This document shows, piece after piece, positions 39,968-47,775 of a stretch of 48,428 nucleotides of DNA. Position 1 is the stretch's first letter; every line of letters starts with the position of its first letter. The notes under the pieces are model-generated. The model saw nothing but the letters and a program-made list of their open reading frames with translations, did no database searches and had not been told where the DNA came from. The stretch is from a virus. Taxonomy: Duplodnaviria > Heunggongvirae > Uroviricota > Caudoviricetes. The DNA is taken from the IMG/VR virus record IMGVR_UViG_3300045988_145381; one strand, written 5' to 3'. The translations under genes were made by a program, and so were the position numbers.

Positions 39968-39990
39968 AACCATAAAAAAGGCCCCCGAAG
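39968..39990 (-). terminator. rho-independent terminator (minus-strand orientation)
   Basis: ggcccccgaaggggcc hairpin with a T-run on the minus strand. Confidence 0.5.
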
Positions 39991-40001
39991 GGGCCTAATC
40001 G

Positions 40002-40124
40002 CTACTTGCTGCTAATGTTTATCGTCACATTTAGAGCGTTATCAGTAATCTTCCAACCCTCCCCATGTGGCGTAAACAAAGCTCCAGTAACAACGATAAA
40101 AATACACATACAGTATTTTTTCAT
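40002..40124 (-). CDS. small hydrophobic peptide (40 aa, MKKYCMCIFIVVTGALFTPHGEGW...)
   Basis: Read directly from sequence; Shine-Dalgarno-like aaggg upstream; terminator 39968..39990 immediately downstream. Confidence 0.25.
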   Translation of the reverse strand: MKKYCMCIFIVVTGALFTPHGEGWKITDNALNVTINISSK

Positions 40125-40520
40125 TGTATGGCCCTTACAGGCCGTTTCACGGCATCCCCACCGACGAAAACAACGCGAGAGCAAGCACGGCTGCTTGTGC
40201 TTGCATGTACGGCAACGGAGAATCCTCCCCTAAAGTCGGTGCCCGGGTGCGAATCGGCGGGAAGGTCCACAGGTATTTTACGATTATTTTAAGATTAGTA
40301 ATAGGAAAGAAATTAAACGAAAAAACTCGTTTATTTTCACAAAATCAGTAACCTACCCACAATCTGTGAGTTTGCAGGCACAACAAGAACCACAATTTTT
40401 TGAAGCATAATAGTGGACTATTATTACCTTTTGGGTAAAATTAACTTGCTGCTTGTGCTTGCGTGGTTGTTTATACAACAACGTAATGCTGAAAGGACCG
40501 CGAATCCGATCAGCACGAAA

Positions 40521-40549: not shown

Positions 40550-40690
40550 TTTCTGCCTACCAATAAACCCACGCTATGTGGTTGTCTCTGTTAAAATCCC
40601 GCCGTATTGACATGAATGCGCCATTGGTGGACACTTTCCGAGCCGTAGCAAAATCTACGGTCGGGATTGGCGTCCCGATTGCACAATGGC

Positions 40691-40716
40691 GCATACCGCG
40701 TTAGCGGTTTTTTTAT
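40691..40716 (+). terminator. intrinsic terminator-like hairpin in the ant leader region
   Basis: accgc-gtta-gcggt stem-loop followed by 7 T. Confidence 0.45.
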
Positions 40717-40876
40717 GCGTAAAGCACTGCTACACCCAAATTATGGTGGGGCGTGCGGGGGCGGAGAAATCCGCGCCGGGTTTGTCATTGTGCCGGTTAC
40801 GCCAACCCTGTACGTCTCACCACCATATTGATTGGCGTCATTGGTGGTGATAGTTCCTTTAATCGGAGATATCACA

Positions 40877-41068
40877 ATGACAAACCTACCCCATGACTAT
40901 TACGTCAACCTCGTAAAGATCCTTCTCAAGAAAGCCTCATACGCCGATAAATTCCGCCTGGCTGAAATCATCGAGCGCGAAGCTATGCGCATCGCCAGCA
41001 ACGATAACGCTGTTTCTGACGCAAAAATCTCCCTCGTAACCAAAGTAGTTATGGGAGGTGCAAAATGA
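40877..41068 (+). CDS. small protein overlapping the ant start (Icd-like position)
   Basis: 63-aa ORF (MTNLPHDYYVNL...) within ORF 40832..41068; ATGA overlap with the ant-like gene. Confidence 0.35.
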   Translation: MTNLPHDYYVNLVKILLKKASYADKFRLAEIIEREAMRIASNDNAVSDAKISLVTKVVMGGAK

Positions 41069-42246
41069 AAACGCTTCCGACCGTTAACACCCTACAGCCT
41101 ATCCTGCATAACCAGCTCCCCGTTATCACTACTGAACTACTGGCGCAATTGTATGGAACCGAGCGCCAACGTCTGACAAACAATTTCAATAGAAACAAGG
41201 AACGTTTTATAGAAGGTAAACACTTTTTTAGGATAGAAGGTAAAGAGTTACGAGAGTTGAAGAACAAAAACTCTTTAAGAGTTCCTGTGAGAGTAGTTAA
41301 CGAACCATCTTTAAGAGGGTTACAAATTCCCCCGAAAGTTCGCTCCCTCATCCTCTGGACAGAACGCGGGGCTGCACGTCACGCTAAAATGCTTGAAACT
41401 AACCAAGCGTGGGATGTGTTCGAACGGCTGGAAGACTGCTATTTCAACCAGAACGCGCAAACGGCCGCGACCGTAACCGTCTCACCAAACAATGCTCGTG
41501 AGGTTGTCGATACGCTCAACGCCAAACCGATGTTTTACATTAAAGTGTGCAACAACGAGCCACTCACAACCTCAGCCGATGTTGCCCAGGCATTCAGCAC
41601 CACAAACAATTCCATCGTTATGGCCATCGATGCGTTACGCATTCCTCGCACAGCTGCGGCGCGTCATTTCTTTAAAGAGCAACGACCGTTGGAAGGAAGC
41701 GACCGCGAAATAACAATCTATCGCATGACAAAAGACGGATTTACCTTGCTCATGGAAAGTATCGACGGTCCAGGCGTGAAGGATATCAAGCTGGCCTACA
41801 TTGAAGCCTTTAACGCTATCAGCAGCGTGTTAAAAACACAGTACGAGCGCGATCTGGCTAAACGACTGTACCAGGAAAAAACGATTATCCGCGCGGCAAC
41901 AGAGCATAATCGGCTATTAACGGAACCGAACTACAGGAAGGAACTAATCAAGGAGTTTGACAAGGCAACAGGGAAAACCAAAGCGGCGCTAAGTCTGCCA
42001 GCAATGACTCAGGAAAATGTGATATCAGCCTTACTTCTTGATCTGCTCAGAAACGCCAGAGCACTTATCAGCTTTGACGAAAACCTGAATCCTCAGCTCA
42101 AGCTACTACCACCGACAGGCAAAGTAGTCGACCAGGCTGATCACAACAGCATACTCAGCGTACTGGATGCAAACCTGCCAGCCAGGACACTACAGGATCT
42201 GATAAAAACATGTGCTGATAAGCTGGCACAGAAAAGCAGACCATAA
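41065..42246 (+). CDS. ant: antirepressor (ORF6N/KilA-N-like plus Rha/Ant-like domains)
   Basis: 393-aa ORF; N-terminal ...ITTELLAQLYGTERQRLTNNFNRNKERFIEGKHFFRIEGKELREL... and central Rha/Ant-like region; hairpin terminator at 42252..42271. Confidence 0.65.
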   Translation: MKTLPTVNTLQPILHNQLPVITTELLAQLYGTERQRLTNNFNRNKERFIEGKHFFRIEGKELRELKNKNSLRVPVRVVNEPSLRGLQIPPKVRSLILWTERGAARHAKMLETNQAWDVFERLEDCYFNQNAQTAATVTVSPNNAREVVDTLNAKPMFYIKVCNNEPLTTSADVAQAFSTTNNSIVMAIDALRIPRTAAARHFFKEQRPLEGSDREITIYRMTKDGFTLLMESIDGPGVKDIKLAYIEAFNAISSVLKTQYERDLAKRLYQEKTIIRAATEHNRLLTEPNYRKELIKEFDKATGKTKAALSLPAMTQENVISALLLDLLRNARALISFDENLNPQLKLLPPTGKVVDQADHNSILSVLDANLPARTLQDLIKTCADKLAQKSRP

Positions 42247-42983
42247 CTACAAGGGGCTACGGCCCCTTACTCTTTTCTCTCTTATCAACACCAGAGACTT
42301 TCTGAAAATCCTTTCGAATAGCGTCAGCGTCACGCGCCAAGCCCATACTCGAACGTGTCGCCATATGACGAAAATGATCAACTGCCGGAAACAAAGAAAT
42401 AATGGACCCAATAGCTTGCAGCAAACTCGCTTTTCTACGCATCATAATTCCACCATAACCGATAACCACCCTTCAGACACACCCCCCCCTCCCCCCATAC
42501 AGGGTGCCCTTTACCGGAGTTCCGGCCCCTTCTCAAAAGCATCAAAAAAAGCTCGAGATCGAGTACCGGAACTCATGCCACCAGATAGCTCCACATCGTT
42601 TCCAATGCTTCGCCGCCGTGTGCGCCCTGTGGCCCACAATCATGCCATTGGTCGTCTGATATACCTTCTTCTGCTCATAGAGCACAGGCGAGTTGTCGCA
42701 CTCCTGCCTTTCTCAGACTCGACTTAGTTTAGATCGCTGTTCCTGGCTTGCGTCAGCACACTTTCCCCTTGTACGCATACCCGCGCGCCACTTCGCCCAA
42801 AAACACCGAACCCAACGAAGTGGCAAAGACAACGACGCGAGCGTGAGTCTGAAATGGGCACCAGTAAAAAAGGGGTTGCAGGCGCAAAAAGATTTGATTA
42901 TCTTTAGACGCAAGAAAGCCGCCCCAATCAAGAGGTGTCTTTTTAAATCCAGCCTACCAAGCAAGATTTAAATTTCAGACTGA

Positions 42984-43007
42984 AAACCGCCCGGCAAGGC
43001 GGTTTTT
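42984..43007 (+). terminator. rho-independent terminator
   Basis: aaccgcc-cggcaa-ggcggtt hairpin followed by tttt. Confidence 0.5.
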
Positions 43008-43055
43008 GTCTTTCTGGCGCTTACATTACACCACCATAAAACGATCCGTAAAGGA

Positions 43056-43328
43056 TCATTTGATCCCTTGTTCCAATTCTGCCGACACTTTAACCTTTTC
43101 CCATACAAGGGTTTGCAGCCTTAACAGAATCGCATCTTTATCAAGGTGTGAAAGATCCTTAACCATATCGTCAAACGACAGAACGCGAATGGCCATCTCA
43201 ATGACCCTCGGCGGCTCCCCCTTCTCATATCGCTTATATGTAGCCAACGATATCCCAAACTCTTCGGCTGCTCGCTCCTGCGTCCAGTTCATCCCACGAC
43301 GCCATAATTTCAATTCGTAACCCGTCAT
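43056..43328 (-). CDS. XRE-family HTH transcriptional regulator
   Basis: 90-aa ORF with HTH (...WTQERAAEEFGISLATYKRYEKG...). Confidence 0.6.
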   Translation of the reverse strand: MTGYELKLWRRGMNWTQERAAEEFGISLATYKRYEKGEPPRVIEMAIRVLSFDDMVKDLSHLDKDAILLRLQTLVWEKVKVSAELEQGIK

Positions 43329-46611: not shown

Positions 46612-47451
46612 TTAATGTTGGAGTGATTTCCAGGTCTTTCTTAGCCTGTTATAACGCTGCTCAACGAGGGAGCGTAAATATGCAAGGTCAGCACCAGGAT
46701 ACATGCCATCAGCAAATTCCTGGCTAACCTCTCTAGTGATTTGATGGCGAAGTTCGGCCTCTCCCTTTTCCTGAACAAGACGCGCAGCTCTCTCCGCTGC
46801 TTTCTGTTTTGCCTTTATCTCTCTGGCCGTCTTCCTCTGACGCCATACATTCTCCATCTGCTCCTGAATAACAATACGCTTATAATCAGCCTCCGTTATC
46901 GCTTTTTTAAGCCGTTCGCTATTCTTCGCATTGAAGTAATTAAGTTTCTGGCTAACCGCACGTCTCCATGCTTGTTCAGTAATACCAACTGTTTCCAGCA
47001 GTTGATCACGAATCTCGATTTTCGCTGGCCAATACTGTTTATTCACCCGATCCCAGCGACGTTCATAATCAATAAAACCTAACTCTTTCAGTTGCGACAA
47101 CGCCCTTGTACAGCGCGTTATAGACTTGTTCCCAGCTTCGGATACGGTAGACAGGCCGCAAAAATCAGCCAACGCCTCAGCACTGGCCAGAACCCGCTTA
47201 GAAATGATGTTTACATGGTGCAAAATCGCAGCAATCACAGCATTAATCGCCCGACGACGATGCTCGTTTATCCGGCGTTTCCGCTCTGACGGTTGATTAA
47301 CGTAGAACGCAACCTCACACGTAAGATCACGACCATTAATGCGCTGTAAAGCATCAGATAACACCAGCGGCAGCTTGTGCGTATGGTGCTTTGGAGGCTG
47401 GAACTCCGGCGACAAATTACAAACGTAAGCTGAACGTAGAGACGGCATTGG
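46612..47451 (-). CDS. repA: IncFII-type replication initiator RepA
   Basis: ORF 46612..47604 trimmed to MDRPMPSLRS...; strong resemblance to R100/R1 RepA1 as recalled (...KSITRCTRALSQLKELGFIDYE...). Confidence 0.75.
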   Translation of the reverse strand, partial: PMPSLRSAYVCNLSPEFQPPKHHTHKLPLVLSDALQRINGRDLTCEVAFYVNQPSERKRRINEHRRRAINAVIAAILHHVNIISKRVLASAEALADFCGLSTVSEAGNKSITRCTRALSQLKELGFIDYERRWDRVNKQYWPAKIEIRDQLLETVGITEQAWRRAVSQKLNYFNAKNSERLKKAITEADYKRIVIQEQMENVWRQRKTAREIKAKQKAAERAARLVQEKGEAELRHQITREVSQEFADGMYPGADLAYLRSLVEQRYNRLRKTWKSLQH

Positions 47452-47494
47452 TCTATCCATATGTTCGCTCTTGCGTCCACGGAAAACCAACGTA

Positions 47495-47576
47495 TAATGG
47501 GAGTTGTCGAGGCGCCCATGGTTAGTTGTTGGTTTTCCTTTCCGTGGATGTCGCAAGAAGCCCGCAGATTTATCTG
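47495..47576 (+). ncRNA. candidate antisense RNA to the repA leader (CopA-like)
   Basis: Plus-strand TTGCGT-16bp-TATAAT promoter at 47461..47488, long imperfect stem, terminator hairpin gcccgcagatttatctgcgggc plus ttttt at 47548..47576. Confidence 0.45.
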
Positions 47577-47775
47577 CGGGCTTTTTGTTTCCATATCTGG
47601 TCACTTTTCAACCAGACACCCACAATCATAACCACGTTACGTGGTTTTAAGAGAACTCTACCACAACACTTTCGGTCATGCACGAAGTCTCTCACTGATC
47701 GAACGATAATCCACCAGTAAAAGGATCTAAATTGGATCTCGTTTTGCGAGCATCATACTACTGGCCTAACTCCAG

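Follow-up and report, generated by a model that had tools for sequence, protein, structure and literature searches.

What is encoded in the gene-poor DNA that follows the antirepressor gene ant in this viral genome? The question was raised by an earlier note on the 48,428-nt window (the whole stretch of DNA analysed here), which described an interrupted C tract, a hairpin and a plus-strand intrinsic terminator lying among low-quality ORFs between ant and an HTH gene, and which proposed an unannotated plus-strand transcript, either a noncoding RNA or a small basic protein. The tract can be read directly in the sequence and the hairpin and terminator were recovered by program, as listed here together with the neighbouring genes:

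42257..42445, minus strand: 62-aa ORF WP_004105254.1 (RefSeq/PGAP), downstream of the element on the primer strand and outside the block
42469..43062, minus strand: conserved noncoding module, predicted ColE1-like origin region running from an RNAII-type promoter to oriV and a G tract
42482..42496, minus strand: G6AG8 tract (C8-T-C6 on the plus strand), 10-30 nt past the ColE1-equivalent transition point or oriV
42787..42824, minus strand: covarying hairpin with arms 42787-42795/42816-42824 and stem GCCACTTCG/CGAAGTGGC (repeat finder)
42983..43012, plus strand: intrinsic terminator with arms 42983-42991/42998-43006, then TTTTTGTCTTTCT (terminator scan and repeat finder)
43056..43328, minus strand: XRE-type HTH gene of 90 aa (Pfam HTH_3, 6e-7), directly upstream on the primer strand and outside the module

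The genome that carries this region is a ~48-kb myovirus-type E. coli phage-plasmid with an IncFII-type RepA replicon and ParA. Across the family the carriers are non-mobilisable phage-plasmids of 44-52 kb with IncFII RepA, ParA and toxin-antitoxin genes. One member is plasmid NZ_CP009073 of reference strain ATCC 25922, which shows 99% identity here, and phages related to the family form plaques on Yersinia pestis; vB_YpM_HQ103, which was also considered, is an unrelated 32-kb phage.

The element proper is a module of about 600 bp located 3' of ant, which keeps the same limits whatever genes flank it: the ends of block 42469..43062 are constant among relatives with four different left and two different right neighbours. 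The HTH gene is found beside it in the E. coli and Salmonella relatives and is absent from that place in L026, a divergent relative whose block is 67% identical. In total 24 distinct block sequences were collected (67-100% identity). The block has an identity of about 89% between E. coli and Salmonella relatives, whereas the HTH gene and repA reach about 72-78%, the adjacent HTH gene standing at about 72%. The module behaves as an independent unit under selection. Exact-motif scans of viral contigs, of one genome per species and of metagenomes for more distant relatives returned close relatives only, plus L026, and the other matches were due to chance, in coding sequence or unrelated DNA.

The coding potential of the block is poor. 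No ORF of at least 40 aa keeps its position and length in it among the six diverse relatives compared, and the 92-aa basic plus-strand ORF at 42693-42971 occurs in the E. coli type only, being absent from Salmonella-type relatives and from L026; as this ORF is not conserved, the small basic protein was discarded. The description of the region as holding only low-quality ORFs is accurate for 42469..43062 but not for its left flank, where PGAP annotates the 62-aa ORF. The latter is a variable neighbour, with other genes in its place in relatives. It has no Pfam match, Rop-like families included, and its AlphaFold2 model (single sequence) is helical with a pLDDT of 70, a low confidence that makes it uninformative; the reading of this ORF as a Rop-like modulator was rejected.

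A region with few ORFs might be a decayed pseudogene, or a site that acts as DNA, such as a partition site, a packaging site or an operator array, for which the presence of two copies of the short motif CCCATACA(A)GGG could be quoted. The repeat finder detected no iterons or direct-repeat arrays in the region, which argues against a Rep-type or partition site, and the composition profile showed nothing decisive. The decay that the earlier note had named as its refutation is not what was found: the block is more conserved than the flanking genes and it displays the compensatory base-pair changes that are typical of RNA. Already contradicted by these data, a pseudogene or DNA-level site is scarcely credible.

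When the block alignment was analysed with RNAalifold, 169 pairs were obtained, with compensatory changes in 26 of them, against 6.7±1.7 in shuffles and 2-8 in slid registers, much of this covariation resting on one divergent sequence (L026) because the diversity is confined to three clusters. The non-Watson-Crick cells at covarying pairs are G.U in 90 cases and A.C in 9 when read on the minus strand. Covariation and this asymmetry show that the conserved RNA structure is on the minus strand, and the significant covariation, together with the identity of ~89% against ~72% for the HTH gene, places the features first noted beyond chance. In hairpin 42787..42824 the 20-nt loop is invariant (minus strand CGUUGGGUUCRGUGUUUUUGG) and compensatory changes are found at six stem pairs, L026 having TTTTACCG/CGGTAAAA in place of the stem given above. 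This hairpin is aligned to a ColE1-family hairpin with a loop starting GUUGGACUC.

The covariance-model search that had been advised in the earlier note did not identify a family: Rfam scans of the region with gathering and permissive thresholds gave nothing usable. The RNAI family (RF00106) reached 18.1-18.2 bits at 42936-43009(+), mostly through the terminator hairpin, where the gathering score is 47 and ColE1 itself obtains 73.8 bits. Since unrelated families score alike, the 18-bit match was rejected as evidence by itself; both it and a Phe_leader match are due to the terminator hairpin.

On the two strands the following sites can be recognized, in which a primer and an antisense RNA are predicted to overlap:

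42508..42535, minus strand: oriV-equivalent segment UGAGAAGGGGCCGGAACUCCGGUAAAGG, aligned to ColE1 GTCAGGGGGGCGGAGCCTATGGAAAAAC (ColE1 1172-1200)
42508..43015, minus strand: predicted RNAII-like preprimer of about 505 nt, starting with the A at 43015 and reaching the ColE1-equivalent RNA-DNA transition
42765..42768, minus strand: GGGG run within ACAAGGGGAAAGUGUGC; the predicted transition point follows about 255 nt downstream
42876..42904, plus strand: predicted antisense promoter TTGCAG-17-TATCTT, read directly from the sequence
42910..43012, plus strand: predicted RNAI-like RNA of about 103 nt, with a 5' tail, three stem-loops and the intrinsic terminator
43023..43051, minus strand: predicted primer promoter with -35 TTACGG (43051-43046), a 17-nt spacer and -10 TAATGT (43028-43023)
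43043..43057, no strand: palindrome GATCC-N5-GGATC with two GATC (Dam) sites, overlapping the -35 and the HTH gene stop codon

The predicted promoter at 43023..43051, from which the minus strand would be transcribed, can be aligned to the ColE1-family RNAII promoter TTGAGA-17-TAATCT column for column. The palindrome is kept in all relatives including L026, and its two GATC sites align with both GATC sites of the ColE1-family RNAII promoter region; as it has a single exact copy in the window, its use as a shared operator was rejected. If extended through the G tract to 42470, the predicted preprimer would measure about 545 nt.

The predicted antisense RNA is complementary to the first ~105 nt of the primer transcript and ends beside the primer start, so that the complement of the terminator is the first hairpin of the primer transcript. 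The terminator also aligns with the ColE1-family hairpin AAAAACCaCC...GGtGGTTT. The terminator scan gave 4 sites, against 1.7±1.4 in shuffles. The antisense RNA folds with -30.9 kcal/mol (z=-3.7), and the RNA of a Salmonella relative adopts the same three-hairpin fold; in L026 the centroid contains the terminator hairpin alone. The antisense promoter was not reported by the consensus promoter scan. In L026 it reads TTGCGC-17-TATCTT, hexamers and spacing being kept while the spacer diverged. A plus-strand noncoding transcript ending at 42983-43012 is therefore plausible from its promoter, terminator and fold, and to that extent the unannotated transcript first proposed finds support, but it is the minor partner, the conserved structure being on the minus strand.

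The promoter-like site, the strong terminator and the 92-aa ORF would also suit a plus-strand product acting alone, either a trans-acting sRNA or a small basic protein, with the C tract as a phase-variation switch. We consider this highly improbable. The ORF is missing from Salmonella-type relatives and L026, the selected structure belongs to the other strand, and about 400 nt of conserved sequence extend beyond any plus-strand sRNA. Moreover, the phase-variable slippage suspected for the C tract finds no echo in the relatives: every one of the 24 distinct sequences, L026 included, carries G6AG7 (most of them) or G6AG8, and the variation is a T/G substitution at a fixed position, not a change of length.

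The relationship with ColE1-family origins was established with profiles. With nhmmer, positions 2-552 of the element profile, practically its whole length, could be aligned (E=7.5e-9) with the Shigella sonnei ColE1-like origin L073, in an alignment that spans the RNAII promoter to oriV; the match has E=3.5e-7 in a 334-kb background enriched for motif-selected decoys. Against ColE1 the element profile gives two collinear, same-strand matches, one at the RNAII promoter and one covering the ori-proximal 130 nt to ColE1 1200 (E=0.001), and ColE1 1172-1200 is the known ori end of RNAII. Conversely, a profile of nine ColE1-family origins run over both strands of the whole window has its top match at 43073-42983(-), with E=0.0032. 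Individual profile matches are weak, at 8-25 bits. The published census of ColE1-type plasmids detected them with profile HMMs at E<=0.001 (PMC8683028).

A joint alignment with the ColE1 family revealed common blocks along the element: GATC..GATC, GTAAT, AAAAACCgCC..GGcGGTTT and the GGTTGGrytC loop, and further GGCGC..aaGGGG..GTGC..CCAGC..GGArC, GrGCGCAC, GGAAACG, GGGTTyCG and GGGGsCGGArC..GGwAAA. In the ColE1 preprimer an A-rich RNA-DNA transition site comes after two G-rich segments, located at about -265 and -20. In the element the GGGG run at 42765..42768 is invariant in all relatives and aligned to the ColE1-family GAACGGGGGGTTCGTGC block, which is said (Masukata and Tomizawa 1990) to act in hybrid formation. 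ACAAGGGGAAAGTGTGC aligns with GAACGGGGGGTTCGTGC and GAAGGGGCCGGAACTCCGGTAAAGG with CAGGGGGGCGGAGCCTATGGAAAAAC, the runs being shorter here (G4 vs G6).

What is expected of a ColE1-type replicon in sequence, that is, homology from the RNAII promoter to oriV, was found with our own profiles, and a sigma-70 preprimer promoter, an antisense RNA, G-rich segments and an A-rich site are all recognizable in silico. The usual context of a small, multicopy and often mobilisable plasmid, sometimes with rop, is missing; it is typical of the family and does not define it. We regard it as probable, judging from the conservation, the covariation, these alignments and the ColE1-like geometry, that 42469..43062 is a highly divergent origin of the ColE1 (RNAII/RNAI) class, placed in a ~48-kb phage-plasmid that also has an IncFII-type RepA and ParA.

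Alternatively, the block could be a long UTR or a large structured noncoding RNA of a new kind, unconnected with replication and similar to ColE1 by coincidence. It would account for the covariation, which supports a structure of ~550 nt, for the lack of any match at Rfam gathering score and for the weakness of single local profile matches. It would not account for collinear matches on the right strand from promoter to oriV in a single alignment (E=7.5e-9), for the ColE1-family profile landing on the element in an unbiased scan of the window, or for an antisense RNA with RNAI-like geometry, and we hold it to be very unlikely.

The element has passed unnoticed in available resources. No ColRNAI replicon is assigned to these plasmids by MOB-suite, and six accessions of the phage-plasmid family are absent from the accessible part of the published ColE1 census, both of which count against the ColE1 reading. 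Our literature search turned up no paper that describes a ColE1-like origin, either for this family or for enterobacterial phage-plasmids at large.

In ColE1-type plasmids, initiation relies on three host enzymes (RNA polymerase, RNase H and DNA polymerase I), and no plasmid-encoded initiator is needed. If the element works as a ColE1-class origin with the same dependence, host RNA polymerase would start at about 43015 on the minus strand and produce a structured preprimer of ~500-545 nt. In a correctly folded preprimer the G-rich 3' part would stay hybridised to the C-rich template, covering AAGGGGCCGG at ~42520-42529 and then G6AG8 at 42496-42482; the hybrid would be processed and DNA polymerase I would extend it leftwards, towards ant. 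The ~103-nt plus-strand RNA (42910..43012), fully complementary to the 5' end of the preprimer, would serve as copy-number and incompatibility inhibitor through kissing-loop pairing. The G6AG7-8 tract may strengthen or fix the R-loop by means of a stable rG:dC hybrid, possibly with a quadruplex that includes the displaced G-rich strand. Since the ColE1-equivalent transition point and the G tract are apart, the actual priming site is uncertain.

The G tract is missing at the aligned position of five ColE1-family origins. In the human mitochondrial genome the commonest CSB2 variants are G6AG7 and G6AG8 (PMC5027508), and CSB2 causes transcript termination and a stable R-loop via a hybrid RNA-DNA G-quadruplex (PMC5027508, PMC3488243, PMC4176368). 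A tract of this type (G5-6 A G7-9) is present in the element, where it follows the predicted promoter and would lie, on the non-template strand, at the 3' end of a primer; this is a resemblance only.

The element is accompanied by the IncFII RepA replicon in 62 of 62 PLSDB records; given this constant co-occurrence, it is not needed to explain plasmid replication. No natural replicon carrying the element without repA was found, and the 32-kb derivative pCREC-544_3 has kept both. The partial L026 sequence contains no RepA.

It may then be asked if the element is a descendant of a ColE1-type origin that no longer initiates, its antisense pair having been kept for a purpose such as the control of transcripts that read through from the HTH gene into the gene beyond the G tract, or interference with other replicons. 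RepA and ParA could suffice for plasmid maintenance, a minus-strand ORF lies directly past the G tract in three of four contexts and 5 nt separate the end of the HTH gene from the predicted primer -35, all of which would agree with such a loss. However, the parts conserved with ColE1 go beyond the antisense overlap and include the upstream G run and the ori-proximal G-rich/transition segment. In addition, the downstream gene varies among relatives and is convergent in Salmonella, which leaves no constant target for regulation, and L026 lacks the upstream HTH gene. A lost origin therefore appears to us distinctly unlikely.

Returning to an active ColE1-class origin, its role may be in plasmid maintenance or in lytic amplification. 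We can only tentatively propose, as an idea less likely than not, that the element is a lytic or induced amplification origin, RepA being left with the low-copy maintenance of the prophage, and that a quadruplex-stabilised R-loop at G6AG7-8 fixes the primer end, which would be an independent bacterial/phage reinvention of the CSB2 device on a ColE1-type preprimer.

Classification and typing of phage-plasmids rest on their protein replicons, and methods of this kind cannot see an RNA-only origin. This element escaped Rfam gathering thresholds, MOB-suite typing and also, as far as its accessible part goes, a dedicated ColE1 census. Should the origin be active, two replicons of different logic would coexist in a widespread phage-plasmid family of E. 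coli, Salmonella and Klebsiella. This would matter for the way in which copy number switches between the prophage and the lytic state, for incompatibility with cloning vectors and other ColE1-type plasmids, and for the exchange of modules between phage-plasmids and small plasmids. The G6AG7-8 tract could moreover serve as a bacterial model, easy to manipulate, of CSB2-type R-loop priming that depends on a G tract.

Among known systems, phage P1 has its lytic replicon (kilA-repL, with oriL) after the immI region, which consists of C4 RNA, a small ORF and ant. The same C4 RNA - small ORF - ant operon precedes the element, and a replication module directly after it would have the same position as in P1. 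The element differs in that RepL and KilA have no homologue there, in the lack of a protein-dependent origin, and in being convergent with ant; no P1-type RepL gene with an internal origin was found, HTH_3 being the sole Pfam match of the neighbouring ORFs.

A precedent that speaks for the ColE1-like reading is found in extrachromosomal mycobacteriophage prophages, which have RNA-based origins (Wetzel et al. 2020, PMC7157519). They share with the present family a phage genome maintained as a plasmid and an RNA-based, initiator-free origin beside partition functions, but they belong to another host phylum, with no sequence relationship expected, and there the RNA origin replaces RepA whereas here both exist. 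The marine RNA-based (MRB) plasmids of Vibrionaceae replicate without a Rep protein, under the control of an RNAI/RNAII-like pair whose RNAs are reportedly unrelated in sequence to ColE1 (PMC6380287); in this they differ from the element, which is related to ColE1.

The likeness to human CSB2, at the H-strand origin, is one of sequence and position only and would be convergence, not homology: the G tract is identical and lies on the nascent-RNA strand, where a promoter-driven transcript is proposed to turn into a primer. A multisubunit bacterial polymerase would act on the tract of the element, where quadruplex and R-loop are putative, and the tract follows a ColE1-like structured preprimer of ~500 nt, compared with a mitochondrial transcript of ~120 nt.

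ColE1/pMB1 remains the closest system, with an RNAII of ~550 nt and an RNAI of ~100 nt (PMC8683028). The element departs from it in its low profile similarity (~8-25 bits), with an Rfam RNAI score below gathering and no ColRNAI assignment by MOB-suite, in its location on a 48-kb phage-plasmid with IncFII RepA and ParA instead of a small multicopy mobilisable plasmid, in the lack of a detectable rop gene near it and in the extra G6AG7-8 tract just past the oriV-equivalent point. Nevertheless both have detectable homology from the RNAII promoter to oriV, a -35 with GATC, a GTAAT -10 and a first hairpin that doubles as the antisense terminator. Both also share, as far as can be predicted for the element, an antisense RNA of ~100 nt with three stem-loops, a distance of ~500-550 nt from primer start to origin, an upstream G run, a G-rich segment ahead of an A-rich transition site, and a module that carries no initiator protein.

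The 48-kb circular phage-plasmid that makes up the window is annotated with myovirus tail and HK97-type head genes, a CI-like XRE repressor, ParA, a RelE/ParE toxin-antitoxin pair and a RepA of the IncFII_repA family (Pfam, 5.5e-44; gene at 46612-47604, minus strand), and in its early region the annotation shows no recognisable phage replication proteins. The region considered here is 100% identical in E. coli plasmid pE400634_48 and 99% identical in the 48.5-kb plasmid of E. coli ATCC 25922 and in three Yersinia phages obtained as virions (vB_YpM_39, 41 and 44).

Between the antirepressor gene ant and the HTH gene (43056-43328, minus strand) an ORF-poor gap had been described in an earlier note. 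Positions 42446-43055 are indeed unannotated, but at 42257-42445 the PGAP annotation has a 62-aa ORF on the minus strand. Alignment with relatives (Salmonella plasmids, a second E. coli type and one phage record) showed that homology begins abruptly at about 42469 and extends to about 43062, beyond which another 35 bases, in the 3' part of the HTH gene, are identical. The left neighbour may be the 62-aa ORF, a convergent Rha gene, a 211-aa ORF or, in the IMG/VR contig L026, a zinc-ribbon ORF; on the right, the HTH gene is replaced in L026 by the end of a tail-fibre gene. The 24 distinct sequences are of narrow diversity and form three clusters, at 98.5-100%, at 88-90% and, for L026 only, at 67% identity. 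Comparing the E. coli with the Salmonella type gives 88-90% identity for the noncoding block and about 72-78% for the HTH gene and for repA. No ORF of at least 40 aa in the block is common to all clusters, and the small basic protein that had been proposed corresponds to a 92-aa plus-strand ORF limited to the E. coli type. The repeat search found no iterons in the block, and the covariance-model search suggested earlier gave no Rfam match up to the gathering score.

A ColE1-type origin was suspected because a plus-strand RNA of about 100 nt is predicted to end beside a minus-strand promoter, and because a structured minus-strand RNA of about 500 nt comes next and ends G-rich. The features are as follows.

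43051-43023, minus strand: predicted primer promoter, TTACGG-17-TAATGT, with the start predicted at A 43015
42983-43006, plus strand: terminator with a T-rich tail
42947-42965, minus strand: hairpin in the antisense-overlap region, among the best-supported helices
42876-42904, plus strand: predicted antisense promoter, TTGCAG-17-TATCTT, with the start predicted at about 42910
42787-42795/42816-42824, minus strand: 9-bp hairpin with six covarying pairs
42645-42727, minus strand: nested helices, among the best-supported
42593-42608, minus strand: hairpin, among the best-supported helices
42496-42482, minus strand: G6AG8 tract, 10-30 nt past the transition-site equivalent

The terminator, the 9-bp hairpin and the tract, on the plus strand C8-T-C6 at 42482-42496, had all been noticed before and are present. 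The predicted primer promoter overlaps a GATCC-N5-GGATC palindrome, unique in the window, with two Dam sites. In L026 the predicted antisense promoter retains its hexamers and spacing, the spacer sequence having diverged. The predicted antisense RNA (about 103 nt) covers the first 105 nt or so of the predicted primer and, in the window as in one Salmonella relative, folds into three stem-loops preceded by a short 5' tail; RNAI of ColE1 is likewise an RNA of about 100 nt with three stem-loops (PMC8683028).

The Rfam match to RNAI in ColE1 (NC_001371) is at 645-749 on the minus strand, which puts RNAII between about 641 and the origin, near 1198. A profile of the element gave two collinear, same-strand matches to this sequence:

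ColE1 594-658, same strand: RNAII promoter region
ColE1, last 130 nt of RNAII, to 1200, same strand: E=0.001

Conversely, a profile of nine diverse ColE1-family origins (74-100% identical to ColE1), searched against both strands of the whole window, had its top match at 43073-42983 on the minus strand (E=0.0032), where GATC..GATC, the -10 GTAAT and the hairpin AAAAACCgCC...GGcGGTTTT are aligned. The ColE1-like origin of Shigella sonnei, L073, was matched by the element profile in a single alignment (profile 2-552, E=7.5e-9) running from the promoter to GGGGGGCGGAGCCTATGGAAA, and all other ColE1-family loci gave promoter and/or origin-proximal matches in the correct order. These E-values derive from small purpose-built databases, but the window-wide and decoy-background searches were concordant: in 334 kb of unrelated loci and masked window, enriched for decoys selected by exact motif, L073 and the locus L076 were still on top (E=3.5e-7 and 5e-4). 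Blocks shared in the joint alignment include a hairpin loop starting GUUGG(A/G)(C/U)UC, the G run in GGCGC...aaGGGG...GTGC, GrGCGCAC, GGAAACG, GGGTTyCG and the oriV segment, and the transition site GGAAAAA|C of ColE1 is aligned with GGUAAAG|G at about 42513-42508. The Rfam RNAI model scored only 18 bits on the element, not above unrelated terminator-driven matches. Remote homology of the element to the ColE1 origin class can be regarded as established at the computational level.

Folding energy cannot settle the strand, since it is lower than in shuffles for either one (z = -3.4 and -3.7). RNAalifold on the 18-sequence minus-strand alignment (A3) predicted 169 pairs; compensatory changes occur in 26 of these, a number that the pair-count tool also gives, and much of this covariation hangs on L026. 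Column shuffles gave 6.7+/-1.7 (0/500 reach 26), and sliding the partners by 1-3 columns left only 2-8. In the 9-bp hairpin L026 has the stem TTTTACCG/CGGTAAAA around an unchanged 20-nt loop. For an unbiased strand test, pairs predicted on either strand were pooled, at least two Watson-Crick types were required and the remaining cells were counted: G.U on the minus strand occurred 90 times and A.C, which is G.U on the plus strand, 9 times. Because of these counts, of the consensus energy (-172 kcal/mol on the minus strand vs -115 on the plus) and of the covariation term, also better on the minus strand, the selected structure is that of a minus-strand RNA. Of the plus-strand ncRNA put forward earlier, a short RNA with its own promoter is still predicted, but the selected structure goes to the opposite strand.

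The metagenome contig L062 (2423-2994) has a 22-nt deletion equivalent to window 42703-42724, in the primer-RNA region, which takes out one arm of covarying helices. The invariant 20-nt loop motif CCAAAAACACTGAACCCAAC recurs in six near-identical gut-metagenome contigs (L046, L053, L054, L057, L065, L067), where a terminator-like hairpin follows directly downstream and the noncoding sequence around it is otherwise unrelated; this may be a coincidence or a short target common to both. In the IMG/VR contigs L031 and L032 the motif has chance matches in a GC-rich phage region unrelated to the element; many ACCCGACACA-type direct and inverted repeats lie there beside a replication-like gene, and the region looks like an iteron origin.

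The conserved block stops about 12 nt beyond the G tract, for which the joint alignment shows no counterpart at the same place in ColE1-family origins. Every relative has either G6AG7 then T or G6AG8, a substitution at a fixed position and not the slippage that had been envisaged. Human mitochondrial CSB2 occurs most often in the same two forms, G6AG7 and G6AG8 (PMC5027508); there a promoter-derived transcript terminates and forms, via a hybrid RNA-DNA quadruplex, a stable R-loop that primes H-strand synthesis (PMC5027508, PMC3488243, PMC4176368). Should the tract prove to be a CSB2-like priming device, the interest of the element would rise. Within 43083-43119, the 35 bases of the HTH gene that are 100% identical between E. 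coli and Salmonella relatives (remaining gene about 72%), CCCATACAAGGG is similar to CCCATACAGGG, which lies at 42494-42504 in the interval from the predicted oriV to the G tract; the 35-base stretch might serve the primer promoter as an upstream element, or bind a protein.

We propose that the minus-strand transcript would act as a preprimer, forming at its G-rich end a persistent hybrid that the G tract might reinforce or position, and that DNA polymerase I would extend it towards ant. The plus-strand RNA would pair with the 5' end of the nascent primer and so inhibit the process.

The element is preceded by a plus-strand operon (40642-42246) with matches to isrK (40642-40714) and C4 antisense RNA (40739-40827), followed by a 78-aa ORF and an ORF6N/Rha antirepressor, a set that resembles the RNA-controlled antirepressor operon immI of P1. 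In P1 the lytic replicon lies directly after immI, and the element occupies the equivalent position. This position and the early region without recognisable phage replication proteins make a role in induced amplification attractive for the element, as a candidate. In several RefSeq relatives ant is split or annotated as a pseudogene. A hairpin 3' of ant (42238-42268) scores as a terminator on both strands and could also halt minus-strand transcripts that run on out of the element and the 62-aa ORF. The Rfam family ryfA (RF00126) is matched over its full length at 39974-40270 (minus strand), with 143 bits against a gathering score of 80; this place, flanked by the partition genes and the operon, is taken by an HTH gene in ATCC 25922. 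The match may mark a type I toxin/sRNA locus that stabilises the phage-plasmid.

The element and repA are each found in 62 PLSDB records (58 Escherichia, 3 Salmonella and 1 Klebsiella in both cases), co-occurring in 62/62, and a 32-kb deletion derivative retains both. MOB-suite typing in PLSDB gave no replicon type whatever, ColRNAI included, for the three members inspected. A search of the accessible literature turned up no ColE1-like origin for this phage-plasmid family or for enterobacterial phage-plasmids, and six accessions of the family are absent from the accessible part of the supplements to the 2021 ColE1 census (PMC8683028). RNA-based origins are known from extrachromosomal mycobacteriophage prophages (PMC7157519) and marine Vibrio plasmids (PMC6380287). 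ColE1-type replicons, to which the element is remotely related, would work alike; the element differs from them in its host replicon, a phage-plasmid, in coexisting with an IncFII RepA replicon and partition genes, in being without rop, and in its added CSB2-like tract, whose G6AG7/G6AG8 forms it shares with human mitochondria.
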